Positions 5,605 to 25,182 of a stretch of 64,000 nt of DNA are shown here, piece after piece (the stretch's first letter is position 1; each line of letters starts with the position of its first letter). Below the pieces are notes generated by a model. The model was not told where the DNA came from, did no database searches, and worked only from the letters and a program-made list of their open reading frames with translations. This DNA comes from a virus, in IMG/VR virus record IMGVR_UViG_3300047554_000685, positions 1 through 64,000 of that record. One strand, 5' to 3'. Both the position numbers and the translations under genes were made by a program.

Positions 5605-6114
5605 TTACGGGACCGCCATAGTTATGGTCATTGTGGTTGTTTGAAAACCACCCTCTGGAGAACCTACGTCCAAGGTGGCAATGACTCCAACACCGTAGCC
5701 AGTTTCATCCCACATATCTAATAGGTTTAGAGATTGCATCAGAACCCATGAGTCAATGGCTAAGGTTTCCGATGCATGTTGAATTTTGTCTGGGGCAGGC
5801 GGTCTACCATTTTGACCAACAATTGGAGTAGCCCTAGAAATCATAATGTTTAGAGTTGCGCTCCTAGGAACATGGCACCTTTGCGGATCACCAACCTGAG
5901 CACCAGGTGCACCTAGATACATCTGGGCGAAGGAAACAACCAGCTGCTCACAGTCGATCGCTGGTTGCCCCATCGTCCAATACTTCCTTTGAGGAAGCTC
6001 TACGTTGTAGGACTGAAAAATAGACTGGACGCGCTCAAGTACACCTTCCATCATGTCGCGGAGGTTTGTTGCATCCTCGGCCACACCAGTAAAGTCAATA
6101 GCGGTCGTCGTCAT
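5605..6114 (-). CDS. probable tail terminator
   Basis: Size and synteny between adaptor and gp10-like gene; 'DCEQLVV...PEGG' pattern. Confidence 0.55.
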   Translation of the reverse strand: MTTTAIDFTGVAEDATNLRDMMEGVLERVQSIFQSYNVELPQRKYWTMGQPAIDCEQLVVSFAQMYLGAPGAQVGDPQRCHVPRSATLNIMISRATPIVGQNGRPPAPDKIQHASETLAIDSWVLMQSLNLLDMWDETGYGVGVIATLDVGSPEGGFQTTTMTITMAVP

Positions 6115-6116
6115 TT

Positions 6117-6302
6117 TTACTCCTCTACAACGTCAACAGAAGATTCTGCCTCAGCTACAACCTCTACTACTGGAGCCTCCACTACTGGTGCTTCTACCTT
6201 AGGAGCTGGCTTAGGAGCCACCTTCTTAGCAGGAGCAGCCTTAGGTGCAGGCTTAGCAGTACCAAGCATGTCCTGAGCACGGAAATTAGTCTGAATTGAC
6301 AT
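6117..6302 (-). CDS. small low-complexity protein (basic PAK N-part, acidic VE C-part)
   Basis: ORF with AGAGGT RBS in structural operon. Confidence 0.6.
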   Translation of the reverse strand: MSIQTNFRAQDMLGTAKPAPKAAPAKKVAPKPAPKVEAPVVEAPVVEVVAEAESSVDVVEE

Positions 6303-6313
6303 ATTTACCTCTC

Positions 6314-7417: not shown

Positions 7418-7440
7418 ATATAAACCTCTCTTATAAGTTT

Positions 7441-7484
7441 AACGGGTGGCGCACTAGTTTATTAGACCAGTCCGCCACCCGTTT
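7441..7484 (-). terminator. hairpin downstream of major tail gene
   Basis: AACGGGTGGCG...CGCCACCCGTT inverted repeat. Confidence 0.6.
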
Positions 7485-7497
7485 TACTTAGTGGTTA

Positions 7498-8643: not shown

Positions 8644-8662
8644 TTAGCTATTCTCCTTAGGT

Positions 8663-9538
8663 TTAGGCTGTTAGATCGACTCGAACAGCGAGGTGGATTG
8701 ATGTATCAAAGTAAGCCGCAGCTGGGCGGATTGCTTTGAGACGCATGTCATTCGCATTACCCGACACGTCGTAAGCTTGGCTTAGATTGTCGTTCACGAC
8801 ATCAACATCGCCAACATAGGTTTTGACGGTGCCGGTGGCGTAAATCCATTTGTTGGTGGCTGATGCAGTAGCACCAGTAGCACCGTCTGGTCCAGTACCC
8901 GAGTAACCTGAACCAACAATAACCGGGGTTCCACCGAGGGTCTGAAGGTGTTCCTTGCCAGCCTCGTGGAAAAGCATATTTGAGTTGCTAGCAAGAAGAG
9001 CTGCAACATCGCGAGTCATGTGGATAATGCCTTGCTCACCGCCATCCGAAGCCAGACCAATTTCATGCTCTAGAAGAGCAAGTGCACGGCGTGGCGATAG
9101 AGCAGTACCGCCGTTAATAATAGTTGCAGAAGCAGAGGAGAGGGCTACGTTTGAGTGAGACTCTCCCTTACGAACCGCGCCGTCCCAAAGCTCGACTTCC
9201 ATGGCATGCTGAGTTACACCCTCAAGCTGGCGCTTTAGGCGCTCGATACGGTCAAGACCACTAAAACCTAGGGTAGAGCGAAGCTCTTCAGCCTCGATGA
9301 ACCAAGGCTTAATTTCTGTGTAATAAGTTGGAGTTCCGGCAGCTACTACTTCGCCATCCGTAGAGTCGGTGTCGTCCCAGTTAGTCGCTGAATAAAGAGT
9401 TGTTTCCCATTCCTGAGAAAATCCACGGACCCACTGGTCTTCGTTAGGACCATTTTCTGGCTTGACTACGGCGAGTAGGCCAAAAGCCGATGGCACAATC
9501 TTCGGTGCTGATACAACACCAGTCTTTGTGAAAGCCAT
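8663..9538 (-). CDS. minor capsid / capsid-associated structural protein
   Basis: Directly after MCP; 'GTPVIVGSGY', 'WIYATG' motifs seen in this head module. Confidence 0.6.
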   Translation of the reverse strand: MAFTKTGVVSAPKIVPSAFGLLAVVKPENGPNEDQWVRGFSQEWETTLYSATNWDDTDSTDGEVVAAGTPTYYTEIKPWFIEAEELRSTLGFSGLDRIERLKRQLEGVTQHAMEVELWDGAVRKGESHSNVALSSASATIINGGTALSPRRALALLEHEIGLASDGGEQGIIHMTRDVAALLASNSNMLFHEAGKEHLQTLGGTPVIVGSGYSGTGPDGATGATASATNKWIYATGTVKTYVGDVDVVNDNLSQAYDVSGNANDMRLKAIRPAAAYFDTSIHLAVRVDLTA

Positions 9539-9573
9539 TTAAAATCCTCTAAATAAAGTCTATATTTTTACTC

Positions 9574-9606
9574 GTATTGGGAGGGCCCCGAAGGACCCTC
9601 CCTCAA
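9574..9606 (-). terminator. intrinsic terminator-like hairpin after major capsid gene
   Basis: GGGAGGG...CCCTCCC inverted repeat. Confidence 0.55.
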
Positions 9607-9628
9607 CGATAACTGCGTTAGCGAACTA

Positions 9629-11638
9629 CTAGAGCTCGATGGTGGCTGCAGCGGTGCCACCAGTGGTGTCGCGCAGAGCTGCAGCAACACCGTTGATTGA
9701 GATGGTCGAGGTGATCTTAAGAGCCTCGATGCCGACCTTAGCAACATTCTCAAAGGTCTCAGTGAACATCTTGTAGTCGTTGGTGCCGACTAGAGAAGAG
9801 TCACGGATGATACCTAGGTCTAGGGTACCGCCGTCAAGGAACAAGAAGGTTCCCTCAGCGAATAGGTACCAAACGAAGCTGTCTGGGAACTCAAGGAGCG
9901 AAGTCGCGCCCTGTGAGCCGAAGACAGTTGCGTCTAGCGAAGCTACTAGGTCAACGTTAACGGTTGCTAGGTAGCCATCGATCTCAGACTTAGAAACGGC
10001 AAGAGTACCGTCACCAGGCATCGATAGAGTTAGGTCAGCTGCCATTGCCTCGTAGATCCATGAAGGAACAATTGCCTTCAAACGGGTCTGTGGGTCAATG
10101 CGGTGACGTGAGCGGTAAGCAACAGCTGCACGACGGATCTGAACTAGGAAGTCACGACCAAAACCGATTAGGTTAGTGGTAGTAACAGCAGTAGATGCGT
10201 CACCGATCTTGCTTAGCAAGTTCTGCTCTGCCTCGCGAGCGTGCTGTACAAGAGCTAGCTCGTTGTGGCGAGCAATCAACTCTGGGTAAGCACGAGTCAT
10301 GAGGTTACCAAACTGTAGCTGCAAAGTAACAGCGTCAGTAGAAACAGTGTTCTCTGAAGCAGCAACTACGGTGTAGCTAGTCTTGGTAGCAGACTGTGGG
10401 TCAGCATCAGTTGCAGCAGTCCATACACCAACAGCGTCAGCGTAGGTACCAGCAGCGAATGATGGTGGGGTTACAAAGCGGATACCGCCACGGTCAGCCT
10501 GGAAGCGAGGCAATGCATCGCGAACTGGGCGAACGGTGGTTGAACCGATTGAGTAAATGTCGTACTTAACCTCAAATGGCGCTGCGTGGCCACCAGAAGC
10601 AACAAGAGCTTCCTGACCTACAACGTTGTTGATCTTAAGTGCGTTTGACTCTGCATCGGTAGTCAAGGTACGCTCTTCTGGGTACTGAGTGGTGATAGAT
10701 GCAACGATGTGCTGCTCTCCATCGCCGCCGTTTACACGACGTAGCGAGTGGATACGCTTTTCCATAGCCTGAGCTACTTCCTGCATGTCGTTAATGGTGC
10801 TGCCTGCGGTGTAGCCAGGGATGTCTGCGCCAGCGGTGATTGCCACTGGAGCTGCCTCTGATACCTGAACTACAGGCTGACGGTCAGCTGGAGCCTCGAA
10901 AGGCTGTTCTGCTGCGGCGCTCACTAGTGCCTGCTCTTTCTGCTCTTCTACGAGAGCGGTTGATGTTTCTAAAGTGGTTTCTTCGGCTGATGCTTCTGAT
11001 CCCTCTACTGCTTCTGCAACTACTTCAGCCGAAGCTTCAATAGTCTCTACCTCTACCTCGGTAGCAGGAGCTTCATCAGCAACTACTTCCTCAGCAGAAC
11101 CGTCTGCAGTAATGGTCTCGTCCACAGTCTCAACCGATTCGGTCGATAGTTCAGAACCTGATTCCTGGTCAATTGATGCTTCAGCTACAGTCTCAGTAGA
11201 AGTCTCGGTCTCGGCTGATGCCTTCATGGCCTCATCCTCGTCTTCCTCTTCCTTCTCAGCTGGCTCTACTTCTTCAGCAGGGCTAACCTCTTCAACTGGT
11301 GCCTCTTCTACAGGAGCCTCTTCAACAGGGGCTTCCTCTACGATTGGCTCGTCTTCCATAGCCATTTCCTCTCCTTCTTCGGCTGCGCCCTTAACACGGG
11401 CGGTAGCCTCAGCCGCACGAGCAGCTAACTCTTCAGCGAGGGCCTCGCGACGAGAAAGCTCACCACGTACGATGTCAAGAGAGTCTGCAAGAGACGTCAT
11501 CGCATCAACTGACTCAGAAGTTGGTTCATCAGCATCGATCGACTCAAACTCGCCGACAATCTGAGTCTGAAGCTCAGCGAGTTGTTCATCGCTAAGATCA
11601 GCCAGAGTGTCTAGCTGTGTTTTAATCTGGTCGTACAC
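9629..11638 (-). CDS. major capsid protein with fused acidic N-terminal scaffold-like region
   Basis: C-term half 'RPVRDALPRFQADRGGIRF', 'EGTFLFLDGGTLDLGIIRDSSLVGTNDY' = actinophage MCP; N-term ~260 aa Glu-rich. Confidence 0.9.
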   Translation of the reverse strand: MYDQIKTQLDTLADLSDEQLAELQTQIVGEFESIDADEPTSESVDAMTSLADSLDIVRGELSRREALAEELAARAAEATARVKGAAEEGEEMAMEDEPIVEEAPVEEAPVEEAPVEEVSPAEEVEPAEKEEEDEDEAMKASAETETSTETVAEASIDQESGSELSTESVETVDETITADGSAEEVVADEAPATEVEVETIEASAEVVAEAVEGSEASAEETTLETSTALVEEQKEQALVSAAAEQPFEAPADRQPVVQVSEAAPVAITAGADIPGYTAGSTINDMQEVAQAMEKRIHSLRRVNGGDGEQHIVASITTQYPEERTLTTDAESNALKINNVVGQEALVASGGHAAPFEVKYDIYSIGSTTVRPVRDALPRFQADRGGIRFVTPPSFAAGTYADAVGVWTAATDADPQSATKTSYTVVAASENTVSTDAVTLQLQFGNLMTRAYPELIARHNELALVQHAREAEQNLLSKIGDASTAVTTTNLIGFGRDFLVQIRRAAVAYRSRHRIDPQTRLKAIVPSWIYEAMAADLTLSMPGDGTLAVSKSEIDGYLATVNVDLVASLDATVFGSQGATSLLEFPDSFVWYLFAEGTFLFLDGGTLDLGIIRDSSLVGTNDYKMFTETFENVAKVGIEALKITSTISINGVAAALRDTTGGTAAATIEL

Positions 11639-11763: not shown

Positions 11764-14700
11764 TTAGGTAAGGAGTCGAAGCAGGGTGTTCATCTCGGAC
11801 TGAATTTCAGCCTGAGAATATACATCTGCTCCAGACATGAAGGACTTCAGATTTGCAGTTGCAATGTCTGCGTCCTCTTTACCGATCTTTGCTTCGACTC
11901 GAGAAATCATCCCATCGATGAGTGTCTTTAGTCCGGCAGGTAGATCGCTAAATCTAACTTTCTGAGCTTCCTTGCCGAATGGCAGTGGAAGGTTGGCAAT
12001 GGTTTTGCCTAGTTCGGCCGCTGTTGTGCGTACGTTTTCTAGAGACTCTGGGTTTAGGGCCTTAGTATCTAGACGATCAATCATTCCCAGTAACTCGCTA
12101 CTAGCCTTAGCTGAATTCACGTAGTCGCCAGCAAACTCTAGGTTTTCAGCGGTCTCTACCTTCTCCAAAGCTTTCTGAAGCCCCGCTACGCCGAGGTTCT
12201 GCTTTAGTCTAGCAAGAACCTTGCGATACTTTCCTTTAGCGTCTCGGGGTTGAGTTTTTGGGGTGTACTTGCTACGACCTTCTTTGTCGTACACATCTTT
12301 GGCTGTGGTCTTGCCAGCTTTGATGTCTTCGGCAATTTTGATCTCTTCTTCAGTCTGCTTGTCGGCTTCTTCTTTAGCTTCCTTAAGCTTCTTCAAATCA
12401 GACTCAGAAATTTCTTTTGCATCAGTCTCGGCAAACTCGGCTAGACGAGAGCGCATTGAAGCAACTATGCTCGCGGCCTCAGACGACCCGGCTGATTTCC
12501 ATTCATCTGGAATTAGGTTAGCCTTACCAAGAGCCTTGGCTCGCTTAACAATGTGCTTACGAACGGTGACTCGCTTTTCACGCTTTGCACGTCCATATGC
12601 CTGAATCGCGTTACGGAGGTCCTGCTCGTTTCGGATCGGGTATGATCCATCTGGAAGAGCAAAGCCCTTGTCAGCAAGTTCAGATCTCTCTTCCTCGGAG
12701 AACTTAGCAAGTTCTGCAACAGCGGCAGCAACAAGAGCACGGGTCTTTAGTTCTTCCGCCTTAGCAGCGGTAGCAACTAGAGCCTGCTTCTTTACGGCTT
12801 TCTTTGCAGACTTGACGCGAGAGCGTAGGTCTGGGGCACTAGCTGAAAGCTCGGCTAGATTATATGCACGCTCAGATAGGGTTGCCACGTGCTGGCTCTT
12901 CATAATTGCCATCATGCTTGCGCCAGCTGCAACTAGAGCCATAACCTTACCTGAAGCAACCATTGCGCGAGCAACTGGGAAGCCTGGAACGTTTACCTGA
13001 CAAACTGCAACGAGCTCAAGAGAGCCATTGATTGGACGCCAGTCACCTGAAGGAGCAGATGCACGTAGAGCGCGAATCTGCATTTCGGTCGCGTCTGGAC
13101 GTACAGATCCAGCACACCAGATGCCATATTCATCTTCGCCCATGTGAACATCGGCAATTGCTGATGCAGTGTCGTCGTAGTGCTTAGCAGCAGAAGCGGC
13201 ATTAGCAGTTAGAGGTGCGTGTCCACCAGCAAGAGTCAGCTGACCAACCGGCATATCGCTACCATCATCGCAGCGGAGGACGCCGGTGTGGAAGTAGGCA
13301 TATTTGCTCTTTGAACGAGGTGGGCGGGTAGAGCGAGGCATACCAATGTGGTTTACATGCCAAGCTGCAATGTGCCCGTAAATGCGACCAGAAGGGTCAA
13401 CAGTGATCGGGGTAGCCTTAGTCAGCTTAGGGTCCTTGAACCACTCTGCTGGTGGTGTCATTGGAATCTCGCCGTCAAGGAATCCTGATGCAACTAGCGG
13501 TGCGCCAGAGAATTCTTGCTCGACGGATTCTTCGTATATTCCGTCAGCTGGAATCACTTCATCCTCCTGGTCTCCCGCTGGTTGTTCTTCAATAGAGATA
13601 GTGCATTCTTGGAATGCAGGCTTTGCTACAATTGTAGCAGCCATTACACGGGCGTGATTTATGGTTAACTTCTTCTTACCTACGTCTTCGGTGTCCTCGG
13701 CGTTTTCAGTCTTCTCTTCTTCCGCTTCGAACTGGTCTAGATCAGCAGAGACGCCACGGATAAATCCGTTACGTACTAGGCGCTCTGCCTCTTGACCATA
13801 TGCTCCTGTATCAAAAACACCATAGGCATTTCCAATACCGTTTTCGGTTCTTTCTACGTAATCAATACGTCCAACTACCACAGACCCCATGTGACCGTCG
13901 CCAGTCTTGATCTGCCATAGGAGTGGAAGTGGGAGCTCTCGAACTGATAAAGAGTCCTTCACGAACTTACGGCCATCGCCCGATTCTAGATCTTCTGGAA
14001 TCAGTAGAGGGATGTTGAATTTAGAACCGTGTTCCATTGCAGCACCTGCCACCAAACCAAAACGCTCTCTAGCGTGGTTTGCTCTGGCGGTAAGCTCCGC
14101 CTGAGCAATAACAGACTGAACTAGGTCGGTCTCGGTAGCGAACAAGCTAGAGGTTTCATTACGACGGCCCGGGTTTAGTCGGCTACCAGTATAGACACCA
14201 GTGGCATCCTTATGACGGAGCTGGCAGTAGCCCTTAGCACGATGCCCCATGTACTTTGAAAGCTGACGAACACAGCGAGTCCAGTCGCCTGGAGTACCCC
14301 ATCGAATCTTCGCAGCGCCCTTACCTCGAGTCCAGTACTGACGAAGCTCTTCTGCATTGCCACGGTTACGGTCTAGGCCACCAGCAGCAACAAACGCATC
14401 AAAAACGGTTAGCAAGCTAGCTGCAACAGCCTCGGGTGCAGTTTCTTCGCTAGGTTTTTCTTCAGCCATCTGAGACAAGACGTCATCTAGAGATTCTTTA
14501 TCTAGCTCCACTACTGGAGGCTTGGTAGATGAACGAAGATCGGCTAGGGTCTGATCATCTTGGACCCACTTGTCACCATCGCGCTTGTATGCAATTGGAG
14601 AAGTAGAGGTCGCAGTCTTAGGGATAATTGCAACTAGATCAACCATTGCCTCTGGGTCTTGCTGATCAACAATAGCAAGATACCTAGGGGTGACGTCGGA

Positions 14701-16263
14701 AGTAGAAGGAGTAAGGATCTTTTCATCCGCAGCGGCAATAATTGAAGCATCGGTGAATTTAGCGTTTGGCCAACGCTTCTTAACTGCAGCCTTATCAGCT
14801 GCGTTCCTTGGCTTGTAGCGTTCCTTCTCTACCCATGAAGCATAGTTGTTGATAAATGCATTTACATCTAGCTTAGGCAGTGTGCCCGGAATGTGGGCTT
14901 TCTTGCTGTTTTGAGGAGTACGAGGTTCCCCGATGATTCCTGAAAAGTCCATAGGAGTTTTACTAGCATCATCTACACGAAGAGAGTTTGGTCGGCTGTT
15001 AGCTTTATCAGCTGGTACTAGATACTTAGACCCAACCTTCACCGAGCGGCCGTCTTCAAGATCAACAGTAACGATGCCGGTCGCGCCGTCAATGTCTCGG
15101 ATTGTTCCAGAGCCTCTAGCAGCGTCTCCGCCGATAGCTACCTTCTGGCCTACCTTAGCAAACTGACCCATAGCGTCTCGAGGCTGGTTTCCAGCATTCT
15201 CTGAACGTTCCTCTGGAGTATAGACTCCATCTTGGTTAGAACCTGCAGCAGTAATAACTTGGTCAATGAATTCCCAGTCTTCGCCACTAATCCCGGCTTC
15301 CATCAAAGCGGCTTCATCGGCATCTAGATCAAAGACAGAAGTCTTACAGTACGGATCTACAGCCATACGAGCTGCAATCATAAGAGCAGACTGAGGGTCA
15401 ATAATTACGTGAGACTTTTCCTCGAGGTCGTAGACGTCATCGAGCATACGGTCATATGTCCATATGTCACCATCAACATGTCCTAGGTTGTCCCAGCAAC
15501 CGTCGTCCCAGACATAAACCGAACCATCAATGTCAATCATGTAGAGTCGGTCAATACCAGACCCGTCTAAGCAAACCCGAGCCAAGAACTCTGGGCCGTA
15601 GTTTGCGTCAAGCTCGTGAGCGTACTTGAATGGGTTTAGTTCTTCGTTCTGCTTAGGGTAGTTGATCTGATCAACGTAGTTAGAGACAGTGTATCCGCCA
15701 GCAGTAACTGACTTCTCTTTCTTGTCTTCGCGCTCAACAATGGCACGCGCCCAGCGCCAAGCAGCGTCTCCACCCCAGAGTGCCCATGCGATACGCCCGT
15801 TAGATGGAAAATTGTCTTGGCCAGGCTTCCAGCCCTTACCCTTTTTATCAACTTCGTGACGAGGGAAATACTTTGCAATATGGCGGATCTTGCGAATGCC
15901 AATTTGACCACCCTTAGCAAGGGTGCGGGCAGTATTCAAGCCAACAGGAGTTCCGCCTCGGCCTTCTTCTTTACGCCATTCCAAAGCTTTCTTTGCCTCG
16001 GCTTGGGCGGACTTAGGAATGGTATACATTCTATCGGCAGAGGCAACAATTGCATCTTCTTCTAGAGTGGCTAGAACCTTCTCGGCTAAAAGGGTTTCGG
16101 ACCTAGTTAAAGGAGTATCCGAGGTCTCCCATTTGTTTTCTGCAAAGAGGTCTAATGCCACACCGCTGGCAACGACGGCTCCTACGGCAGTGTCAATAAC
16201 TACACCGTGTGTATTGTTAGCATAGAATGCTAGTTCGCCAGAGCGGCCGATTAGGTGGTTCAT
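11764..16263 (-). CDS. large multidomain capsid maturation protease
   Basis: HK97-protease-like 'ESGDGR..LPLLWQ..GH..VVGRID..GVSADLD', second 'HYDDT..SGDWR' domain, 'ALPDGSYPI..AIQAYGRAK' (DUF6582-like); upstream of MCP. Confidence 0.75.
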   Translation of the reverse strand: MNHLIGRSGELAFYANNTHGVVIDTAVGAVVASGVALDLFAENKWETSDTPLTRSETLLAEKVLATLEEDAIVASADRMYTIPKSAQAEAKKALEWRKEEGRGGTPVGLNTARTLAKGGQIGIRKIRHIAKYFPRHEVDKKGKGWKPGQDNFPSNGRIAWALWGGDAAWRWARAIVEREDKKEKSVTAGGYTVSNYVDQINYPKQNEELNPFKYAHELDANYGPEFLARVCLDGSGIDRLYMIDIDGSVYVWDDGCWDNLGHVDGDIWTYDRMLDDVYDLEEKSHVIIDPQSALMIAARMAVDPYCKTSVFDLDADEAALMEAGISGEDWEFIDQVITAAGSNQDGVYTPEERSENAGNQPRDAMGQFAKVGQKVAIGGDAARGSGTIRDIDGATGIVTVDLEDGRSVKVGSKYLVPADKANSRPNSLRVDDASKTPMDFSGIIGEPRTPQNSKKAHIPGTLPKLDVNAFINNYASWVEKERYKPRNAADKAAVKKRWPNAKFTDASIIAAADEKILTPSTSDVTPRYLAIVDQQDPEAMVDLVAIIPKTATSTSPIAYKRDGDKWVQDDQTLADLRSSTKPPVVELDKESLDDVLSQMAEEKPSEETAPEAVAASLLTVFDAFVAAGGLDRNRGNAEELRQYWTRGKGAAKIRWGTPGDWTRCVRQLSKYMGHRAKGYCQLRHKDATGVYTGSRLNPGRRNETSSLFATETDLVQSVIAQAELTARANHARERFGLVAGAAMEHGSKFNIPLLIPEDLESGDGRKFVKDSLSVRELPLPLLWQIKTGDGHMGSVVVGRIDYVERTENGIGNAYGVFDTGAYGQEAERLVRNGFIRGVSADLDQFEAEEEKTENAEDTEDVGKKKLTINHARVMAATIVAKPAFQECTISIEEQPAGDQEDEVIPADGIYEESVEQEFSGAPLVASGFLDGEIPMTPPAEWFKDPKLTKATPITVDPSGRIYGHIAAWHVNHIGMPRSTRPPRSKSKYAYFHTGVLRCDDGSDMPVGQLTLAGGHAPLTANAASAAKHYDDTASAIADVHMGEDEYGIWCAGSVRPDATEMQIRALRASAPSGDWRPINGSLELVAVCQVNVPGFPVARAMVASGKVMALVAAGASMMAIMKSQHVATLSERAYNLAELSASAPDLRSRVKSAKKAVKKQALVATAAKAEELKTRALVAAAVAELAKFSEEERSELADKGFALPDGSYPIRNEQDLRNAIQAYGRAKREKRVTVRKHIVKRAKALGKANLIPDEWKSAGSSEAASIVASMRSRLAEFAETDAKEISESDLKKLKEAKEEADKQTEEEIKIAEDIKAGKTTAKDVYDKEGRSKYTPKTQPRDAKGKYRKVLARLKQNLGVAGLQKALEKVETAENLEFAGDYVNSAKASSELLGMIDRLDTKALNPESLENVRTTAAELGKTIANLPLPFGKEAQKVRFSDLPAGLKTLIDGMISRVEAKIGKEDADIATANLKSFMSGADVYSQAEIQSEMNTLLRLLT

Positions 16264-16324: not shown

Positions 16325-16492
16325 TTATTTATCGGGTGTGATATCTTTGATAACAACGCCATTCTCGTCTACAAATTCGCTGTCATCTTCATAATCTGGT
16401 ACTGGGTTTCCGATCACTTTTGCTAAAAGGGCCCAATACTCAGGATCATTTTCAGTATATCCGCCTAGCATGTCAGGCTTTTCTTTACTCAT
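16325..16492 (-). CDS. 55-aa acidic hypothetical protein (not in ORF track)
   Basis: MSKEKPDMLGGYTENDPEYW...ITPDK; ATG overlaps end of upstream ORF. Confidence 0.6.
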   Translation of the reverse strand: MSKEKPDMLGGYTENDPEYWALLAKVIGNPVPDYEDDSEFVDENGVVIKDITPDK

Positions 16493-18788
16493 CTGAGTCT
16501 CCATCTGATTTAGATTTGTTTGATGCTCGGTAACCCTCGATAGGGCTCCAGTCTCCCAGATCCATACCTAGCAAATAGTCTACTACCTTCTGAGCCTCGG
16601 AAGATGCTTTCATAACCATATCCGGGTTGTCTTGTAGTGCTTCTAGCCAGCTCTTTACATACGCTGCAGTGTTATCAAAGTCACTGTTAACACCAAACAT
16701 GCTAGCAAGGATTGCTGCAGAGATTTCTGCAATAAGTTCCTCTTCACCTCTAGCCGCATTATCAGTTCCGTAGTTCTTGGTTAGTTCGGTACGGTCAAGG
16801 CGATCCTTGTGTCCGGTGCTGTGGGCAAGCTCGTGAGTAATAGTGTCAAACATATCTTCTGGACTATTGAACTGCTCCTTGGTTGGGAGGGTAATGACGT
16901 CAGAAGCTGGGTTCCAGTTTGGAGAAGAAGAGTGGCTACCATACTCACCTACGTAGGTATAAGAAACTTCAGGGGCTTTCAAACCCTTAGCTTCCATAGA
17001 CTTGCGGTATCGCTCTAGGATGAAGTCCTGAGACTCTAAAGGAGTTTTAGGTTCGCCAGCTTCAGCCTTAACCGTAGGCAGGTTTAGGCCGTCAATCTGC
17101 TCAACGTTAAATACGGTCTTTACACCAAATGTTACGTAGCTACCAGTTACCTTTTCTTCTCCGGTTGAAGAGTCTTTCTCTTTCTTAACCCTCTTGTAAG
17201 GAACAAGGATTTGTACACCCTTCTCGCCCTTACGAACCTGCCCGCCTAGCTCGGTGGCTTGGTTGTAAGTCATCCAGCGTGGGTCGCTATATCCAGATAG
17301 TTGCTGATAGAGCTTAAGAACAATCGAGTTGATGCCGCTATAGATGTGTTTTGACGCTGGGTTGCGCGGAACGAATGCACCAGCATAGTTAGCATCATCC
17401 TTGAATGGTTTACGCCAAGGAGCCTTACCTTCTTTAATCTTTTCCAGTAAGCCAGACAGAACTCGCTCTTTAGCATCCTTGCTGTCAGATACTGATTTAG
17501 CACGGTTGAAAGGTTTTTTGCCTGGGGCTTGATTAAACCCTAGAAGGGGAGCATCAACTGAATCAGGGTTAGTGTCCGGGTTAAGGCTTGAGTCTTCTGG
17601 AGTAGTAGACGCCATTCTTGCTGACTGTAGGGTCGGAGCAACCTTAGTCTTTAGCGGGTTCCACTGAGGAAGGACGTCATTACCTAGTAGGTAGTCGGCA
17701 GCCAACTGAGCACGGGTCATGGCGTCAGTCACAGCCTTGTCCGCATCAATGCCATCTAGGTTTCTGATGTGAGTGAGCAGGTAGCTGATCGAGTTCTCTG
17801 GGTCAGCATCAAGACCAAACATCTTTGCTAGAAGCATGGAGCCTAACTCAGCGGTTAGCTCTTCTTCTGCGTAGGCATTACTATTTCCATCCAATGCCTT
17901 CTTAACTTCTTCTCGGTTAAGTCGGTTAGTTCTACCCGTGCTGTGGATTAGTTCGTGGGCAATAGCGTTGAACCAAGACTCGTCGCTATCAAAGTTTGCT
18001 CGGAGTGGTAGTCGTACTTTATCTACATCTCTACCGTAGCTTGGTTGCCAGCGAGGATTCTGATCTTTATCTAGTTGAATACCATAGAGCTCTGGTTGCT
18101 TGATACCGCGGATCTCGGCCGCCTCGCGCATTCTGTCGAGAACAATGTCTACAGCCTCTTTTGCGGTGTAAGACTTGTTTTCGTCAGCGTTGTATGGATC
18201 GATTCCTTGGATCTGGTCACCATTAAAAACAGTGACTTTTCTAAACTCAAAGTGCTCAACAACCTTGCCATCACGACTGGTGACAAAGAAACTAGGTACA
18301 AGAATCTGAGTACCCTTGGTTCCAGCCGAGATAGAGCCACCAGCCTGAGCAACCTGAGAAGCAGTCATCCAGCGAGGATCACTGAACCCATTTTCTGAGG
18401 CCGCGGCTTCTAGAGCAATCATGTTAGGGCCGGTGTAGTGGGTGTTGCTTGCAGGGTTGACTGGAAGAGGGCGATTAGCGTCCCTGCTCCACTTACGTAC
18501 CCATTCTTTTAGTTTTCTAGGGTTGCGTAGTTTTTCTAGGACATCGCTTAGAACGCTAGACGCTGCAGCCTTATTTGCCTCTGTTACAGAAGCCAACTTC
18601 TCATCTAGCTGTTCTTCAGTCAACTCGAGCGGATTAGTTCTAGACCCCGGCTCGCCTTCAGGCACTGAAGGGCGAACAGAGTTATCAGCCGCAGACTTGC
18701 GGTACTTATCTAGAATGCTCTTGATTCTGTCTAAATCTGGAGCGTCCTGATCTAATCCAGGCTCAGCCCCCTCGCTGGGGGCTAGGCT
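16485..18788 (-). CDS. tandem ArdC-like modules (ArdC-N/DUF1738 ssDNA-binding + zincin metallopeptidase) x2; probably the -1 frameshift extension of 18782..23983
   Basis: Two copies of 'NPAS...Y.G.N...DPRWMT..Q....GG....G.KG..ILVP...VFN..QI' + 'HEL.HSTG...RL.R...EE..AE'; frame open back to 18788; annotated GTG at 18665 lacks an RBS. Confidence 0.85.
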   Translation of the reverse strand, partial: SLAPSEGAEPGLDQDAPDLDRIKSILDKYRKSAADNSVRPSVPEGEPGSRTNPLELTEEQLDEKLASVTEANKAAASSVLSDVLEKLRNPRKLKEWVRKWSRDANRPLPVNPASNTHYTGPNMIALEAAASENGFSDPRWMTASQVAQAGGSISAGTKGTQILVPSFFVTSRDGKVVEHFEFRKVTVFNGDQIQGIDPYNADENKSYTAKEAVDIVLDRMREAAEIRGIKQPELYGIQLDKDQNPRWQPSYGRDVDKVRLPLRANFDSDESWFNAIAHELIHSTGRTNRLNREEVKKALDGNSNAYAEEELTAELGSMLLAKMFGLDADPENSISYLLTHIRNLDGIDADKAVTDAMTRAQLAADYLLGNDVLPQWNPLKTKVAPTLQSARMASTTPEDSSLNPDTNPDSVDAPLLGFNQAPGKKPFNRAKSVSDSKDAKERVLSGLLEKIKEGKAPWRKPFKDDANYAGAFVPRNPASKHIYSGINSIVLKLYQQLSGYSDPRWMTYNQATELGGQVRKGEKGVQILVPYKRVKKEKDSSTGEEKVTGSYVTFGVKTVFNVEQIDGLNLPTVKAEAGEPKTPLESQDFILERYRKSMEAKGLKAPEVSYTYVGEYGSHSSSPNWNPASDVITLPTKEQFNSPEDMFDTITHELAHSTGHKDRLDRTELTKNYGTDNAARGEEELIAEISAAILASMFGVNSDFDNTAAYVKSWLEALQDNPDMVMKASSEAQKVVDYLLGMDLGDWSPIEGYRASNKSKSDGDSDE

Positions 18789-18794
18789 TTTGGG
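18765..18794 (-). other. candidate programmed -1 ribosomal frameshift signal
   Basis: C CCA AAA heptamer (18794-18788) in correct phase, followed after 4 nt by stem-loop AGCCCCC-AGCGA-GGGGGCT with no U-tract. Confidence 0.75.
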
Positions 18795-21700
18795 TTTTTC
18801 TCGATTAGTGCTCGTAAACGATCAGCATAAGCATCTAGCTTGCGCGCTGCGTTCTCGCCAATACCACGGTTAGTTGAGCGTAACCAACTAACAGCTGATT
18901 CGATTGCCCTCAGAATGTCTTCAGGATTATTTCCTACCACATCAATAAGGCCAGCCATATCTCCTTCGGAGTCGTCGTTTAACAATCGAGCGTAGACATC
19001 ACCTAATGACTCGTTTTCTTTTGATAGGTTGGCGGCGGCCCATGCGGCGGCGTCCTCGCGATCATCAAACTCTTTACTGTAGCTGTCAGAATCGCTCTCG
19101 GGAGAATCTACATAACCTACCCATTTGCCAGTTTCTTCATCCTGACGAACTCCACCTTCCCAGCCGCCTCCGCGAACATCTCCGAGAGGGTACTCTTTGT
19201 CGTTCATATGGGCTTCAATGTCAGCAACGTCAGTAGGGTAGTAGTAGTCAAAGAAGTCTTTTAGATCTTCAAATGCCTTACCAAATTCAAAATCGCTACC
19301 CGCATCTTCTGGGTCGCGCTTAGCTGCTTCAATAGGTCCTAGATCGGACTCGATCTTGGCAAGCAAGTCATCAGCTGCCTTCTTAAGACGAGCTTCTAGG
19401 TCCTTACCTCCCTCTGAAGTAGGGCGCATTGAATTGTATGCATCCATTAGCTCGGAGTATAGGTAGTAAGCATCATCAATATCGTTCGGGTCAAGGCCCT
19501 CGACGAAGTCTTTGCCTAGGAATGCATAGCCTTTTTCATCGCTGTTCTCGGTTTCCTCGGCCAAAGAAACTAGCTCTGGTTTCATCTGCTCCCAAGAAGT
19601 TCCGTACTGCTTTCCGGCTGCTTGATCAAAACCCTTATCACCAGACTCTAACTTGGCAATTGCATCATCCATGTCGCTTGACCAGCGGCCATAACGCTCG
19701 TCGGCTCGTAGACGCTTTAGTGCATCTAGGTCACCCTTAGAAACTAGCGAGTCAATGTAGTTATTGATTCCGCCCTCAACGTCATCCATTTCTTTCAGCA
19801 TGCTGATGATAGATGAAACATCGCCCTTTGAGCGGTTCTCTAGGTCCTTGAGAATTTCATCGCGATCAGCGTCAGATAGGCCCTTAGCGTAGACGTCACG
19901 CTTTACAGAGTCAATCATCTTCTGAGAAGGCTTGCCGTACTGCCCCAAGTTTTCCTTGTCACCAAGGTCGCGGAGCTTACCGATGAATCCACCAGCCTGA
20001 GCCTTAGTCAGGTTGTTTCCTTCTAGAGCCTCTTTGATAGCCTGAGCAGTTTCTGAGTCAATACCTGACTTGGTCTCAGAGAGGTTCTTAAGGTAGTTGT
20101 ATTGGGCTTCGGTTGCTGGCTCCATCATCTTTGGAGATAGAGTTTTGCCTGGAGCTTGGTCGAAGCCGTCAATATCAACTCCAGCGTTTTCAAGCATGTC
20201 TGCAATCAGCTCTGGATCTTCGTTGGCATAGAAGTCAATAAAGTCTTCAGCGTAGTACTGAGGCTTCTGCATTACACGCTTGCCATCTGGGTGATCTACC
20301 GCTACGTCATAGACCATGTCATAGAACTCGTCTGGGTTCGTCCGACGCAATTTAAGGAGGTAGTCCCTCATTGACTCGGCTACGCTGTCTTTGGTGTCTT
20401 GATCTAGTTCGTCCCAAGCATCGGCGATACTTTTACCAGAAGCTTGATCAAATCCAGGCTCTTCTTCGCCCTTACGTGCGTTGATGTCTGCTAGGGCGTC
20501 CTCAATCTGAGACTGGTACTCGCTGTAGCTCGGATCATTTACGATGTCCTCGAGGAAGTCCGAGTCATCTCCGTCAATCGCAGCCTGAACTTCATCTGCC
20601 TTTGCCTGATCAGCGTCCGCAAGATTCTTCTGCTTACGCGAGTCTAGGGCCTCCGCGTTGGTGCGAATGTCTTCAACAATCTTGTCAAAAATTCCACCAG
20701 TAGTGTCGTTAGCAATGTCACGCTCGGCACCAAGTGCATCAGCAACATTAGACGAGTCACGTAGACGCTCGGCAATCTGGTTTGCCTCGTCCATCTTGTC
20801 AGAAACCTCTGCCTCAGATAGTCCGTCAGCTTCCAGTGAGTTTTGGTAGTCCTCTAGGGCTTGGTCAATTGCAGACTCTACATCAGCGTGAGCTGAGTCG
20901 TATTCGCTGTCAAACTCACTGTCAATTCCTGCAGCTTGGTCAAAGCCTTCGGTCTGCTGGCGGTCTGGACGACGACGTAGCTTAGCGGTGAGCTTCTCAA
21001 TTGAGTCACGATCTAGTCCTGCGTCAAGCTGAGCAAGAATGTCGTTCATCTCGTCAGGAGTCAATTCTTTGGTAGTTAGGTAACCCTGAAGCGAGTTGAT
21101 CTGACGCTCGGTTGGCTTGGTTGGATCAACACCAGGCTTAAAAGGCTTCTTAGTTAGGTCACCAAACAGAGAGGCCATCTGGGCCTTTGTTAGGTTCTTG
21201 TTAGCTAGAGCATCGTCAATAGCCTTTTGAGTGACAGGGTCAATACCGTCACGCTCTGAGTTAAGCTCCTCAAGAAGTGCATACTGCTTGTCAGTAGCTG
21301 GCTCCATCTGCTTTTCAGATAGTGGCTTAGCTGGTGCATCCGCCTTATCTTCGCCAGTCTTCTGGTCAAGACCAGCAGGTGGCTCGAGTTCATCTAGCTT
21401 CTTGTCTAGGTGCGCGTTGATGCCTTTACGAATATCAGAAGCAATGTCAGTTTCATCATAGGTCGGGCCAGCAGTGCCAGTAGCGACTTCATCGCCATCT
21501 TCGTTGTAGACGCCCCAGTTGCGGTAACCGTCTTCGTCTTCATCGCCAACCCAGATGCTATCATCGCTGTCGCCATTGAAGATCTTGTTTGCAAGCTCGT
21601 CTACCTTGTTAAGTAGACCTTCCTTATCAACAGCCATGCGAGCCTGCTCCTGAGCTGCATCGGCTTGCTCCTTCTCCCACTTAGCACGGGCACGCTTCTC

Positions 21701-23983
21701 TACCTGCTCTGGAGAATTGTAGAAGTCTTCCTGAGCCTTACGGTCAGCTTCACGCTTAGCCTTCTTCTCTTCTGCATAGTTAGGGTTCTCTAGACCGTTT
21801 TCTGCCATAGCAGCAACACGGTCAAGGAAGTCAGGCCAAGACTCGCGGTTATTACGAAGCACAGTCTCAACTGGCTTACCATCTACAGAGACCTGCATTT
21901 CGTCCCAAGCGACGTAGCCCTTTTCGTCATCGAACCACGAGCCGTCACGATACTTAACCTCTACGCGACCATCTGGAGATGTGTAGGTTTCCTCTCCTCC
22001 AGTGAAGTTGCCGTCTGCATCCTCTTCGAGGAAGAACTTGTGATCACCTAGGTCCTTGGCAATCTTTTTGCCAGCTGCGCTTAGCTTCGGAGCTTCACCC
22101 GGAGCCTGATCAAAACCACCGTCGTCCATACCAGCGCCGAAGTCATCATTGCGCCAAGCTTCGTAGAGGACATCATAAGCTTTGCTCGGGTCCTGTAGAA
22201 CTTCAGCAAACTCTTCAGCTGCCTTAAGAGCGTCTTCCTTAGAGTCGTAAGTTTGCTTGTCCTCGTAGTTATATTCTAGGTTTTCATCAACCAAACCTTG
22301 AGGAATAGACTTAGTTACTTCGTACTTGTTGCCCTTACGCTTTACCTCTACAAAGCCTTCGTCATTACCGTACTCAAAGTCGTCGCCCATGTTGTCAGAC
22401 TGCTTTAGACGGTTATCTGGGCTGAACCAGCTTTCCTGCTTCAAAAGCTTTTCTAGACCGTCGCCGGTGTCGCCATCTTCTAGATCTCGGTAGCTTGCAC
22501 GATACGATCCGATGTATTGACCATCATAGGTAACACTAATTCCAGAAAGGTCGGTGGCTCCAAAGCCGACGTCACCTTCGCCATCAGCTTCCCAGTTAAG
22601 TTCTAGCTTACCATCAGGAGAGGTATACTCGGCCGAGCCGCCCAAGTCTTTCCAGTTCTGAGGATTTGATAAATGATCCCAGTCAATCGCGCTGTCAAAC
22701 CAGTTTGAACCCTCTCCGGGCTTCTGATCTAGGCCAGGCTCTTCTGGAGTTTCGTCGCCCTCTCCATTAAGAGCATCGTAGGTCATACCAATCTTGTTGA
22801 GACCAGCCCAGTCCTGACCAACGCCAAGAATCTTGCCGTCTTTGTCGCGGATTTCAAACATCGGGGTATTTGGATCAATGGCACCGCTCTCGCCTGCGCC
22901 TTCGGTCATGTAGTCACCCTCTGGTAGGGTGTCAACAGCCTTTACAGTTTGACCAGTCTTAGATGTGAAGGAACCGTCTTCATTCTTGGTCCAACCCTCT
23001 GGAGCATCTACACGAGTCTTTAGGAAGTCTTCTAGAGGAATTGCAGAGGCAATATCTGCCTTGCTCGGGGTCGCAATAGTGCGGTTAGCCTTGAGACCCT
23101 TTACCTTAGAAAGTGCGCGCTTAGAGAGAATAGCCTTTACTGGAGCAGTCTTAGCGGCGTCAATAGTATAGATACCGTCAGGAATTTCGGGGCTGTCTTT
23201 AATCTCAATCTGGAAGTTGTTGGTTCCCTTAGGTGCACCAACAATGCGTGCATCTTCCGAAAAGATACTTCCGTCTCCGCGACTAAAGAATCCACGTAGA
23301 CGCCCAAATTCCTCAGCGAATCGGCCATCACGGTGACGACGACGAACCGCTGCCAAAATCTTTGACATTGCTGAACGCATTGCAAAGCTCATCTTAAAGG
23401 CTGCAGTGATAGGAAGTACTACGTCTTCTGGAACATAGCCAGCAGCAACCAATGCGCCAAGCTTTGCGCTGGCGTAGTCAGCCTCTACAGAACCAGGCTT
23501 GGTTGCGTAGGCCGCGTAAACATCAAGACGAGCCTGCTCCGAGGCAATGCGAGGGTCACTAGCTACCCAAAGGGCGGTGACTCGAGATAGGGCAGAGGCA
23601 GTCATAGCACCACGGTTAGTACGTGACGGGTGTCCTAGAGGAAGGAAGTCGGTGTATTCGCCAAGGCCAGAAGCGATAATACCGTGGTGAGAGTAGTTAA
23701 GGACGTTGTCTACAGCATTTGCTGCAAATAGCATCCACTCGCTTGGGTCAGCATCTAGATTGAAGTGGATTGCGGTTTCGATGATGTTATCAATCGAAGC
23801 GTCTGACACCTGACGGGCCGAAGCAACCAGTGCATTCTGAGTCTTCGCGTACTCTACGATCGCTAGTTTAGAGAGGTGCTCTGCATCCTCGGTTGTGTAG
23901 TCGCGATCAGCGTAGAAGTTTTCAATCTTGCTGATGAGATTAGTGAATGCTGAGCTCACTTTAGGCCTTCCTGAGCAGGGCAA
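18782..23983 (-). CDS. giant acidic modular head-module protein (putative internal/ejected polyprotein)
   Basis: 1733 aa between portal and protease; 7 copies of G[FL]DQ[AK]xG linker; two repeats of 'EPAT..Q...LTKAQ' domain; highly acidic segments. Confidence 0.7.
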   Translation of the reverse strand: MPCSGRPKVSSAFTNLISKIENFYADRDYTTEDAEHLSKLAIVEYAKTQNALVASARQVSDASIDNIIETAIHFNLDADPSEWMLFAANAVDNVLNYSHHGIIASGLGEYTDFLPLGHPSRTNRGAMTASALSRVTALWVASDPRIASEQARLDVYAAYATKPGSVEADYASAKLGALVAAGYVPEDVVLPITAAFKMSFAMRSAMSKILAAVRRRHRDGRFAEEFGRLRGFFSRGDGSIFSEDARIVGAPKGTNNFQIEIKDSPEIPDGIYTIDAAKTAPVKAILSKRALSKVKGLKANRTIATPSKADIASAIPLEDFLKTRVDAPEGWTKNEDGSFTSKTGQTVKAVDTLPEGDYMTEGAGESGAIDPNTPMFEIRDKDGKILGVGQDWAGLNKIGMTYDALNGEGDETPEEPGLDQKPGEGSNWFDSAIDWDHLSNPQNWKDLGGSAEYTSPDGKLELNWEADGEGDVGFGATDLSGISVTYDGQYIGSYRASYRDLEDGDTGDGLEKLLKQESWFSPDNRLKQSDNMGDDFEYGNDEGFVEVKRKGNKYEVTKSIPQGLVDENLEYNYEDKQTYDSKEDALKAAEEFAEVLQDPSKAYDVLYEAWRNDDFGAGMDDGGFDQAPGEAPKLSAAGKKIAKDLGDHKFFLEEDADGNFTGGEETYTSPDGRVEVKYRDGSWFDDEKGYVAWDEMQVSVDGKPVETVLRNNRESWPDFLDRVAAMAENGLENPNYAEEKKAKREADRKAQEDFYNSPEQVEKRARAKWEKEQADAAQEQARMAVDKEGLLNKVDELANKIFNGDSDDSIWVGDEDEDGYRNWGVYNEDGDEVATGTAGPTYDETDIASDIRKGINAHLDKKLDELEPPAGLDQKTGEDKADAPAKPLSEKQMEPATDKQYALLEELNSERDGIDPVTQKAIDDALANKNLTKAQMASLFGDLTKKPFKPGVDPTKPTERQINSLQGYLTTKELTPDEMNDILAQLDAGLDRDSIEKLTAKLRRRPDRQQTEGFDQAAGIDSEFDSEYDSAHADVESAIDQALEDYQNSLEADGLSEAEVSDKMDEANQIAERLRDSSNVADALGAERDIANDTTGGIFDKIVEDIRTNAEALDSRKQKNLADADQAKADEVQAAIDGDDSDFLEDIVNDPSYSEYQSQIEDALADINARKGEEEPGFDQASGKSIADAWDELDQDTKDSVAESMRDYLLKLRRTNPDEFYDMVYDVAVDHPDGKRVMQKPQYYAEDFIDFYANEDPELIADMLENAGVDIDGFDQAPGKTLSPKMMEPATEAQYNYLKNLSETKSGIDSETAQAIKEALEGNNLTKAQAGGFIGKLRDLGDKENLGQYGKPSQKMIDSVKRDVYAKGLSDADRDEILKDLENRSKGDVSSIISMLKEMDDVEGGINNYIDSLVSKGDLDALKRLRADERYGRWSSDMDDAIAKLESGDKGFDQAAGKQYGTSWEQMKPELVSLAEETENSDEKGYAFLGKDFVEGLDPNDIDDAYYLYSELMDAYNSMRPTSEGGKDLEARLKKAADDLLAKIESDLGPIEAAKRDPEDAGSDFEFGKAFEDLKDFFDYYYPTDVADIEAHMNDKEYPLGDVRGGGWEGGVRQDEETGKWVGYVDSPESDSDSYSKEFDDREDAAAWAAANLSKENESLGDVYARLLNDDSEGDMAGLIDVVGNNPEDILRAIESAVSWLRSTNRGIGENAARKLDAYADRLRALIEKNPKA

Positions 23984-24031
23984 TAATTGCTTAAGCTATG
24001 ATACTAGAATTTTACCGTATTACCAGACAAT

Positions 24032-24727
24032 TTATTTTCTAGTTGACTTCGGATGTGCTTTTGGAAGCAGGTCGTTGTCGGTTGTGTATTTTGAGTTTTT
24101 AGGTGAACCAGAGCGTAGTAAATGCAGATAAGCATTTACACGAGCCATGGCCCAAGAGTTGCGGTTTTGATCTGGTCGGTGGGATGTAGAGAATGCACCT
24201 GCACCACGACGGTACACAGCTTTAAGGGCTCCCATGGTAGCTTTTCTACCGTCTGGTGCTTTCTTGTTGTGTGTTTCCATTTTGTTTTTTAGGGCTGTCA
24301 CAATTTCTTCAGTAAAGTCTACAGACTTACCCGTGGCTGCTGACCCCTTTTTGTTTTTGCTTGAACCCTTGATTTGATCTTTCTTAGGTGCTGGCTTCGA
24401 ACCTGCGGTTGCAGTTACTGCACCGTCCGGGAGAACTGCAAAACGGCAAAGTCCTCCGTCCTCCACTTCAGCTGCAATAATTGAGCAACCATTAGGTGCG
24501 TTGAAGAAAACGCAGTTGCCGCATTTTACGCCGATCTTAGCGTTGTCTTCATTTTCTGAGGCAGGGGTGTATCCGGCCCAGACGCCAGTGTTGTCATCAT
24601 TAAATTTGCCATACTTATTCGCAATAAGTTGGAGTGCATCTGCAAGTTCTTGCTCTTCGGGGACTAGGTTATATCCACCAGCAACTACAGAATCGTCTTT
24701 TTTGAATACATCACCAACATAAGACAT
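24032..24727 (-). CDS. head-module protein with 4-Cys HiPIP-like motif and DUF5824-like C-terminal domain
   Basis: 'KCGNCVFF..NGCSII..GLCRF' and 'LKAVYRRGAGAFSTSHRP...WAMARVNAYL'; ATG 24727 overlaps the Dps stop. Confidence 0.6.
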   Translation of the reverse strand: MSYVGDVFKKDDSVVAGGYNLVPEEQELADALQLIANKYGKFNDDNTGVWAGYTPASENEDNAKIGVKCGNCVFFNAPNGCSIIAAEVEDGGLCRFAVLPDGAVTATAGSKPAPKKDQIKGSSKNKKGSAATGKSVDFTEEIVTALKNKMETHNKKAPDGRKATMGALKAVYRRGAGAFSTSHRPDQNRNSWAMARVNAYLHLLRSGSPKNSKYTTDNDLLPKAHPKSTRK

Positions 24728-25182
24728 TACTGAACCCCTAAAGTCGATTTCAATTGCCATTGCCACTTCTTGTGCATGTCAATGCGCCCGGCTAGGAAGT
24801 CAGCAATGCCTTGCTCATTGCATGCATCAGCAATGCCGAAAGCCTGCTCATAGCAAAGAAGCACTCCCTGATTAACGCGAGCCAAAGATTCAACCATAGA
24901 GACCGGATCTCCAAGCTCCCTCTCTTGACGAACAATACAAGTTAGTTCTACGAAGTCGGTGACTAGGTACGGGGCGTCATAGCCTAGCTTGCGGATGTTT
25001 TCAGCAAGAGGGTCAATGGCGCTATCAACATCAGAATAGATCTCTGCAAAAAAATCATGGAACTGATGAAAAGTAAGACCCTTCACATTCCAGTGATATC
25101 CCTGAGCTAGAAACCCAAAGGTAGTTACATCAGCTAATAGATGTGCTAGTTGCTCTGCTAGCCCGTCCTTCTCATGGGTCAT
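24727..25182 (-). CDS. dps: Dps / ferritin-like DNA protection protein
   Basis: 'HWNVKG..F..FH..F.EIY....IDPLAENIRKLG' Dps signature; 'HKKWQWQL' C-term. Confidence 0.92.
   Translation of the reverse strand: MTHEKDGLAEQLAHLLADVTTFGFLAQGYHWNVKGLTFHQFHDFFAEIYSDVDSAIDPLAENIRKLGYDAPYLVTDFVELTCIVRQERELGDPVSMVESLARVNQGVLLCYEQAFGIADACNEQGIADFLAGRIDMHKKWQWQLKSTLGVQ

Follow-up and report, generated by a model that had tools for sequence, protein, structure and literature searches.

Layout of the giant gene and the ArdC reading frame

We examined a 64,000-nucleotide stretch of viral DNA (positions 1 to 64,000 of the IMG/VR virus record IMGVR_UViG_3300047554_000685; hereafter the window), which is part of a 79-kb record, and focused on a giant gene of its head module and on the ArdC open reading frame (ORF) that follows it in the -1 frame. 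A preliminary description of this DNA, made from its letters alone, had proposed that a -1 frameshift fuses the giant protein to two ArdC anti-restriction modules. All genes in the region lie on the minus strand, in the order large terminase, portal, Dps/ferritin-like protein, DUF5824, giant gene, ArdC ORF, a 59-amino-acid (aa) ORF, a 1499-aa protein with a prohead-protease-like part, and major head protein. The placement of the giant gene between the portal and major head genes is syntenic in relatives. Positions below are those of the window, and features are on the minus strand unless stated otherwise.

The giant ORF spans 18782..23983, encodes 1733 aa when read from a TTG, and terminates at a TAG (18784-18782). 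Its homologues all begin with (M/V)SSAF.., which corresponds in the window to a GTG at 23959 with AGGAAGG ahead of it; this GTG is likely the true start, giving a zero-frame gene of 18782..23959 with a short product of 1725 aa. The ORF and the fusion described earlier both stand, while their lengths, given as 1733 and about 2499 aa from the TTG, would become 1725 and 2491 aa. The protein carries a conserved N-terminal domain of ~400 aa, followed by modules set apart by seven G[FL]DQ linkers. When its N-terminal 400 aa were searched exhaustively with HMMER, 241 representative clusters were recovered, in nearly all of which the domain is N-terminal, within proteins of 1.3-5.3 thousand aa. Its predicted fold (predicted local distance difference test, pLDDT, 76.8) combines a helical part with a small beta-rich part, and domain scans found no MuF domain in the giant protein. 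The linker motif in its wider form, G[FL][DN]Q, occurs 9 times in the giant and ArdC ORFs together; 0.14 occurrences would be expected, and 2000 shuffles gave at most 2. The other long minus-strand ORFs of the window lack it.

From 18821 to a stop at 16485 the -1 frame stays open, and it contains two ArdC units. Pfam recognizes two successive pairs of ArdcN and MPTase-PolyVal in this arm (E 9e-50 and 5e-48), bearing out the earlier assignment of ArdC-N and zincin peptidase pairs. Module 1 (17649..18575) comprises ArdC-N and a zincin MPTase with the motif HELIH at 17943-17957; module 2 (16536..17483) comprises ArdcN at 17139-17480 and MPTase-PolyVal at 16599-16919, with HELAH at 16821-16835; a GFNQ linker (17529..17540) lies between them. 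The two modules are 36% identical (E 1.5e-58), and module 2 aligns over the whole of the solved ArdC of plasmid R388 (6i89, 6sna; E 3e-42). Both retain the HEXXH signature (HELIH, HELAH) together with a downstream Glu segment (EEELTAE, EEELIAE), so that, judged by alignment, each has the predicted domain layout of ArdC, namely ArdC-N followed by an HEXXH metallopeptidase with its downstream Glu.

A candidate slip signal at the end of the giant gene

The 3' end of the giant ORF reads GAG AAA AAC CCA AAA GCC TAG and includes the heptamer C CCA AAA (18788..18794), in phase as X XXY YYZ, on which the P-site codon could shift from CCA to CCC and the A-site codon from AAA to AAA. It is followed by a 6-nt spacer (18782..18787) made of the sense codon GCC (Ala) and the zero-frame stop TAG, such that the short form ends in ...NPKA. 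Overlapping the stop is a predicted stimulatory hairpin (18764..18784), UAGCCCCC-AGCGA-GGGGGCUG, whose arms (18784-18777 and 18771-18764) enclose the loop AGCGA (18776-18772) around a C5/G5 core; it has seven Watson-Crick pairs and one G-U pair, a predicted energy of -18.5 kcal/mol, and a 5' arm that includes the stop codon. The C5/G5 core of this predicted structure begins 6 nt from the heptamer, within the 5-9 nt downstream expected of a stimulatory structure. Read from the CCC of the heptamer, the -1-frame extension (16485..18794, stop at 16487-16485) has 769 codons, opens with PKSLAPSEGAEPGLDQDAPD..., and would add 767 residues after ...NPK. The sequence statements of the preliminary description, including the end of the giant ORF, the in-phase heptamer, the GC stem-loop lacking a U-tract and the -1-frame ArdC ORF open back to the slip, are all correct.

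Other roles for these elements were considered and set aside. The hairpin was rejected as a Rho-independent terminator, since no U-tract follows it (the stem is succeeded by GAGCCUGGAUUAGAU) and no minus-strand terminator was called there. A terminator-like match on the plus strand (18775-18793) lies on the non-coding strand and is not kept by relatives, and a tandem heptamer A AAC CCA just upstream of C CCA AAA is not conserved. Simple read-through of the TAG was likewise rejected, as the zero frame meets further stops at once.

Sharma et al. place both C CCA AAA and A AAA AAA among the shift-prone patterns in E. coli (PMC4066793). Within the giant ORF there are 6 in-phase X XXY YYZ patterns; the presence of a heptamer is by itself within chance, and its conservation is far beyond chance.

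Conservation of the signal across three clades

Relatives' DNA was taken from IMG/VR and from metagenome contigs. With the C-terminal third of the giant protein as query, we recovered ten proteins, 43-100% identical, all of which end in ...(N/S)PKA. Clade 1 comprises nine distinct loci (the window, L001-L004, L007, L009, L014 and L021) with 41-91% protein identity, and all nine carry CCCAAAA GCN TAG CCCCC N5 GGGGG CTGA, with variation limited to the Ala wobble position and the five loop bases. We refer to this combination of heptamer, spacer and hairpin as the cassette. The sequence just upstream of it is free to vary in clade 1. The codon directly before the heptamer encodes N, S or A and yet always has C as its third base, in keeping with the heptamer's requirement; across cassettes, C or A always occupies the position just before the heptamer, irrespective of the amino acid encoded. 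When six sequences were aligned, 9 of 10 third-codon positions of the cassette showed no variation, whereas the flanking coding sequence was invariant at 12 of 146 (P = 1.6e-9).

Two further clades carry their own versions of the cassette. Clade 2 (L030, L032) has xxA AAA AAA G(AC/CG) TAA CCCCC GATGA GGGGG, and its proteins end in ...(S/L/A)KK(A/D); clade 3 (L033, L034 and L036, representing 2-3 loci) has tcC CCA AAA GCG TAA CCCCC GAAAA GGGGG, closing a giant ORF of 3215 aa or more, after which comes a 1779-aa ORF. The predicted hairpin energies in clades 2 and 3 are -11 to -14 kcal/mol. Thus the conservation that the preliminary description had named as a check on the proposal was found in thirteen loci of three clades, all of which keep the heptamer, the 6-nt spacer of one sense codon plus stop, and the C5-N5-G5 hairpin. 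The length of the spacer is constant through its three versions (GCN TAG and GAC/GCG TAA), and in 13 of 13 loci a long downstream ORF lies in the -1 frame, opening 3-51 nt before the heptamer. On a broader level, 27 of 135 family representatives of at least 1200 aa end in PK[AD] or KK[AD]. The occurrence of two canonical heptamers at the same place, each with the same spacer and predicted hairpin, is what a ribosomal -1 signal predicts and is hard to explain otherwise.

Probable translation of the bridge between the slip site and ArdC

Between the slip and the GTG once taken as the ArdC start (18663..18665) lies a bridge of -1-frame codons (18666..18794), which reads PKSLAPSEGAEPGLDQDAPDLDRIKSILDKYRKSAADNSVRPS, has no start codon of its own, and would yield the tryptic peptide SLAPSEGAEPGLDQDAPDLDR. 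Divergence among relatives, measured from the hairpin to the window GTG, is distributed over the three -1-frame codon positions as 0.25/0.11/0.44, a coding pattern. The bridge diverges no more than the domains on either side of it, and its peptide is conserved in relatives. As the preliminary description had noted, the bridge contains a further copy of the linker that punctuates the upstream protein, GLDQ at 18747..18758 in the -1 frame, and relatives keep it with synonymous codons (GGA TTA GAT CAG, GGT CTA GAT CAA, GGC CTA GAC CAA and GGT TTT GAT CAA, the last giving GFDQ). The presence of the linker argues that the bridge is translated.

These observations bear directly on the most obvious alternative, in which the two ORFs are separate genes: the giant protein would end at the TAG, ArdC would be initiated at GTG 18665 or another internal codon, and the heptamer and hairpin would be incidental or serve some other purpose. 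Gene callers do annotate two ORFs here, a possible start lies 43-48 codons past the slip in the window (GTG), L001 (ATG) and L007 (a nearby GTG), and a word search for longer proteins containing the bridge peptide found none, which is weak evidence. The proposed start itself is not conserved, however: the codon matching GTG 18665 is GTA in L002, L003, L004 and L007 and ATG in L001. In L003 and L004 no canonical -1-frame start precedes a TTG at codon 82, and L002 offers no ATG, GTG or TTG for 144 codons, its first being an ATG at codon 144, inside ArdC-N. As described earlier, the window GTG also has no ribosome-binding site, that is, no purine-rich Shine-Dalgarno sequence, unlike most neighbouring structural genes. 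Since the bridge is conserved while the GTG start is not, independent initiation cannot explain the bridge, whose 43 codons upstream of the GTG evolve as coding sequence. Separate genes would also leave unaccounted for a -1 frame that always opens just before the heptamer, and a heptamer and hairpin that are invariant at synonymous sites. We therefore regard two independent genes as improbable and reject the GTG as the main start, reading it as an ordinary Val codon; judged by these comparisons, the ArdC 'gene' is very probably the frameshift arm of the giant gene, without a start of its own.

Transcriptional slippage and sequence error

A second alternative places the loss of a base in transcription, with RNA polymerase dropping a base in the A run so that a subset of mRNAs would encode the fusion. 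Clade 2, with its run of seven A's (AAAAAAAG), makes this conceivable there, and A7 runs can give mRNA indels according to Sharma et al. (PMC4066793). Clades 1 and 3, the window included, have just A4 after C3-4. Slippage would, moreover, need neither the heptamer phase, nor a constant 6-nt spacer, nor a hairpin at about +12/+13 from the P site, all of which a ribosomal -1 shift does need. An A4 run is too short for efficient polymerase slippage. We consider this explanation very improbable. Least credible of all is an indel introduced by assembly or sequencing, or a gene broken in recent times, in which case the true ORF would be continuous or the fusion a decaying pseudogene. The site does have short homopolymers and in-frame fused relatives exist, but over 18300-19300 Logan contigs from three independent studies agree with the window at every base (0 differences, 0 gaps), which excludes the assembly indel raised as a concern in the preliminary description. 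Thirteen loci from different metagenomes share the frame arrangement, and purifying selection acts on both ORFs in lineages that share only ~38% protein identity in their N-terminal domains.

Relatives that encode the fusion in a single frame

The fused architecture also occurs without any change of frame. Three family members at a greater distance (P0026, P0030 and P0032; 2848-4167 aa) encode the N-terminal domain, 8-10 G-F-[DNG]-Q linkers and two ArdC units in one ORF, matching the window ArdC with E of about 1e-171, and in them ..GGVRPKAP.. runs on in frame at exactly the position of the terminal ..ANSPKA* in their relatives P0031 and P0033. The existence of one-ORF relatives with the same architecture indicates that the union of giant protein and ArdC is a real, selected protein, as far as comparison of encoded proteins can tell. 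A search for P0032 found no locus in viral contigs, and one for P0030 gave only P0031-like loci.

Programmed frameshifting as the preferred reading

Taken together, we find a programmed -1 ribosomal frameshift at C CCA AAA, fusing the giant protein to two ArdC modules, to be the best reading of the locus and a highly probable one; the fusion proposed in the preliminary description is thus strongly supported by comparative evidence. What sequence comparison establishes is the signal, its phase and spacing, their conservation, the apparent translation of the bridge in the -1 frame, the want of a conserved independent start, and the fused architecture; on these grounds the conserved recoding site appears real and mechanistically canonical.

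On this reading, most ribosomes would decode C CCA AAA GCC and stop at the TAG, releasing the 1725-aa form that ends in ...NPKA. A fraction would be held up at the heptamer while the C5/G5 hairpin occupies the mRNA entrance, its G-C core beginning at +12 of the first P-site base, and tRNA-Pro and tRNA-Lys would re-pair one base back (CCA to CCC, AAA to AAA) and continue in the -1 frame, a step that we take from established knowledge of -1 frameshifting. The resulting 2491-aa product would be the minor form and would add one more G-L-D-Q linker and two ArdC units, each with an ArdC-N single-stranded-DNA-binding domain and a zincin metallopeptidase. Both forms may be loaded into the head, and ArdC may then enter the host with the DNA and counter restriction early, as the position of the gene and the polyvalent-protein hypothesis (PMC5512222) suggest. 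More speculatively, cleavage of the G[FL][DN]Q linkers, for which the ArdC zincin domains are possible agents, might set the modules free.

Several points weigh against this reading or against parts of it. C CCA AAA is outside the most efficient heptamers of Sharma et al. (C CCA AAG, G GGA AAG and A AAA AAG; PMC4066793), as is A AAA AAA. The 5-bp stem of clades 2 and 3 does not exceed shuffled sequence in stability (z -0.5 to -1.7), and the invariance of the stem means that it offers no covariation. GTG 18665, or the ATG of L001, could yield some free ArdC in its own genome. The in-frame relatives P0026, P0030 and P0032 indicate that the family can do without a fixed sub-stoichiometric ratio of the kind that frameshifting would set. 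The modelled N-terminal domain gave no convincing match by Foldseek against PDB or BFVD, nor in a wide VIA search, and it is gene position that points to packaging and injection. Finally, the frameshift in this uncultured freshwater phage, like its efficiency, is inferred.

Relation to known recoding and counter-defence systems

In tailed phages, tail chaperones and small capsid or tail decorations are known products of programmed frameshifting. Atkins et al. 2016 (PMC5009743), citing Garcia 2004 and Rodriguez 2005, describe virion proteins that a -1 frameshift extends in Lactobacillus phage A2 (major head protein, gp5A/gp5B, and major tail protein), T3/T7 (capsid 10A/10B) and the Listeria phages A118/A500. 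As in these cases, the candidate slip of the window falls close to the 3' terminus of a gene in the late structural module, would yield a short and a C-terminally extended form, and combines a heptamer with a downstream stem-loop. Phage A2 reportedly uses C CCA AAA as well. Their extensions, however, are short, often Ig-like decorations on a capsid or tail subunit, whereas the candidate extension in the window consists of 767 aa of ArdC enzyme and DNA-binding modules on a giant protein that is separate from the major head protein (gene at 9629-11638), and its content varies among relatives, from one or two ArdC units to a ParB-like domain and up to 1779 aa.

Virion delivery and MPTase autoprocessing of polyvalent proteins were proposed by Iyer, Burroughs, Anand, de Souza and Aravind in 2017 (PMC5512222), in whose article the words 'frameshift' and 'linker' are both absent. 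The window shares with these proteins a giant multidomain product encoded among head genes, the commonest polyvalent pair of ArdC-N and zincin MPTase, and, in relative L014, a ParB-like domain. It differs in that the ArdC/MPTase arm would be reached only by recoding and in that the body consists of small modules with G[FL][DN]Q between them. If the frameshift occurs, the window product would bring several effector domains into one polypeptide with a zincin MPTase hub and ArdC-N, as expected of a polyvalent protein.

The ArdC of the IncW plasmids R388/pSa is a free protein of ~300 aa that, according to Gonzalez-Montes et al. 2020 (PMC7213743), is needed in the recipient cell. Both it and the window modules combine a domain that binds single-stranded DNA, at the N terminus, with a C-terminal metalloprotease bearing HEXXH and a downstream Glu-rich helix, whereas in the window two tandem copies would end a 2491-aa trans-frame product of a lytic-type phage. 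By analogy, retroviral Gag/Gag-Pol and lambda gpG/gpGT also place a -1 shift at the end of an abundant structural or assembly gene, so that a fixed fraction of product gains extra, enzyme-bearing domains, including a protease in Gag-Pol; they have no homology to the window, and in-frame relatives exist here, unlike for Gag-Pol.

Full-text literature searches combining ArdC or polyvalent proteins with frameshifting returned nothing relevant, and the site is apparently unpublished. The frameshift seems to decide whether anti-restriction enzymes are attached to a giant protein, itself probably carried in the virion; if so, recoding would be linked to counter-defence, and polyvalent proteins would gain a means of setting the dose of bulky cargo. 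Annotation would be corrected as well, the ArdC 'gene' of these phages being a reading frame without a start and no gene in its own right. That polyvalent proteins process themselves is a long-standing idea, and the conserved linker together with the protease-bearing arm opens it to direct test.

Variable cargo behind the cassette

In the loci examined, the extension always holds ArdC, and its other content differs: L021 has one ArdC unit, L009 an extra N-terminal module and two units, L014 a ParB-like domain with ArdC, and L034 an extension of 1779 aa. In run X9, a freshwater metagenome, the assembly graph forks inside the cassette (18745-18836), where a co-occurring strain continues with an L014-like ParB-like cargo right after GFDQ, which suggests cargo exchange at the cassette joint. 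The cassette-less relatives L012, L019 and DSL-LC01 have neither ArdC nor the linker motif. Across the family, proteins whose end is of the cassette type have a median linker density of 3.8 motifs per 1000 aa, and those lacking both cassette and ArdC one of 0.2.

These patterns (different cargo after an identical cassette in L014, L009 and L021, the run X9 fork, and linker density tracking the cassette) are consistent with a wider proposal, which we offer tentatively and think rather unlikely as a whole, that cassette and linker form a portable cargo adaptor in a phage polyprotein resembling Gag/Gag-Pol. The zincin of the arm would cut G[FL][DN]Q in both forms and free ~10 small proteins plus ArdC in the newly infected cell, and the near-invariant ~60 nt of slip signal, hairpin and linker codons would act as a recombination joint for swaps of anti-defence cargo between co-occurring strains.

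Irregular frames were seen at two related loci. L009 has an in-frame TGA (8665-8667) inside the giant ORF, dividing it into 902 aa and 580 aa in the same frame, which may be a sequencing error, a genuine split or read-through. In L033 (5791-11003) the extension lies in two frames (5791-8382 and 8364-11003), against one 1779-aa ORF in the near-identical L034, reflecting either a second shift or an assembly error.

Provenance and additional features of the region

DNA identical to the window is present in freshwater and other aquatic metagenomes from several studies. The phage GenBank collection contained no DNA relative and one protein relative, Actinomycetia phage DSL-LC01, which is of lake origin, is the sole isolate with a homologue, and has neither cassette nor ArdC. 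Searches of genome contigs found no relative, and hence no prophage and no host assignment, and the window contains no tRNA genes.

Within the giant protein (P0003), residues ~880-1000 and ~1275-1390 (about 19790-21320 in the window) are two copies of a ~120-aa module, reading ..MEPATDKQYALLEEL.. and ..MEPATEAQYNYLKNL..LTKAQ..; many of its columns are family-invariant, it recurs in P0030-P0033, and it matches no Pfam family. Every giant ORF examined, in the window (23957-23959) and in related loci, starts with GTG after AGGAAGG or AGAAAGG, and none with ATG.

Among the neighbours, the Dps/ferritin-like gene (~157 aa, 24727-25182) sits between the portal and giant genes and shares an overlap with the portal gene's end, an arrangement found in all relatives examined. 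The 1499-aa protein (11764-16263) combines a prohead-protease-like part (phrog_18402, residues 940-1164) with a portal/MuF-type PHROG match; it has no Pfam or NCBIfam match and no G[FL]DQ motif, and the equivalents of its gene in DSL-LC01 are annotated as capsid maturation protease. The 59-aa ORF (..GGYTENDPEYW.., 16325-16504) overlaps the ArdC stop, and comparable small ORFs lie after the giant gene or its extension in relatives, among them ones with neither cassette nor ArdC (L012, L019, L034). Upstream of the giant gene, ~45-60 nt before its GTG start, lies an intergenic element, CGGTAAAATTCTA(G/A)TA (24002-24017), which is conserved at the same place in L002-L011 and L014, down to 46% protein identity, and is represented in clade 2 by AAGATAAAATTTA; from its position and conservation, it is probably a phage promoter or operator for the giant-gene/ArdC transcription unit.

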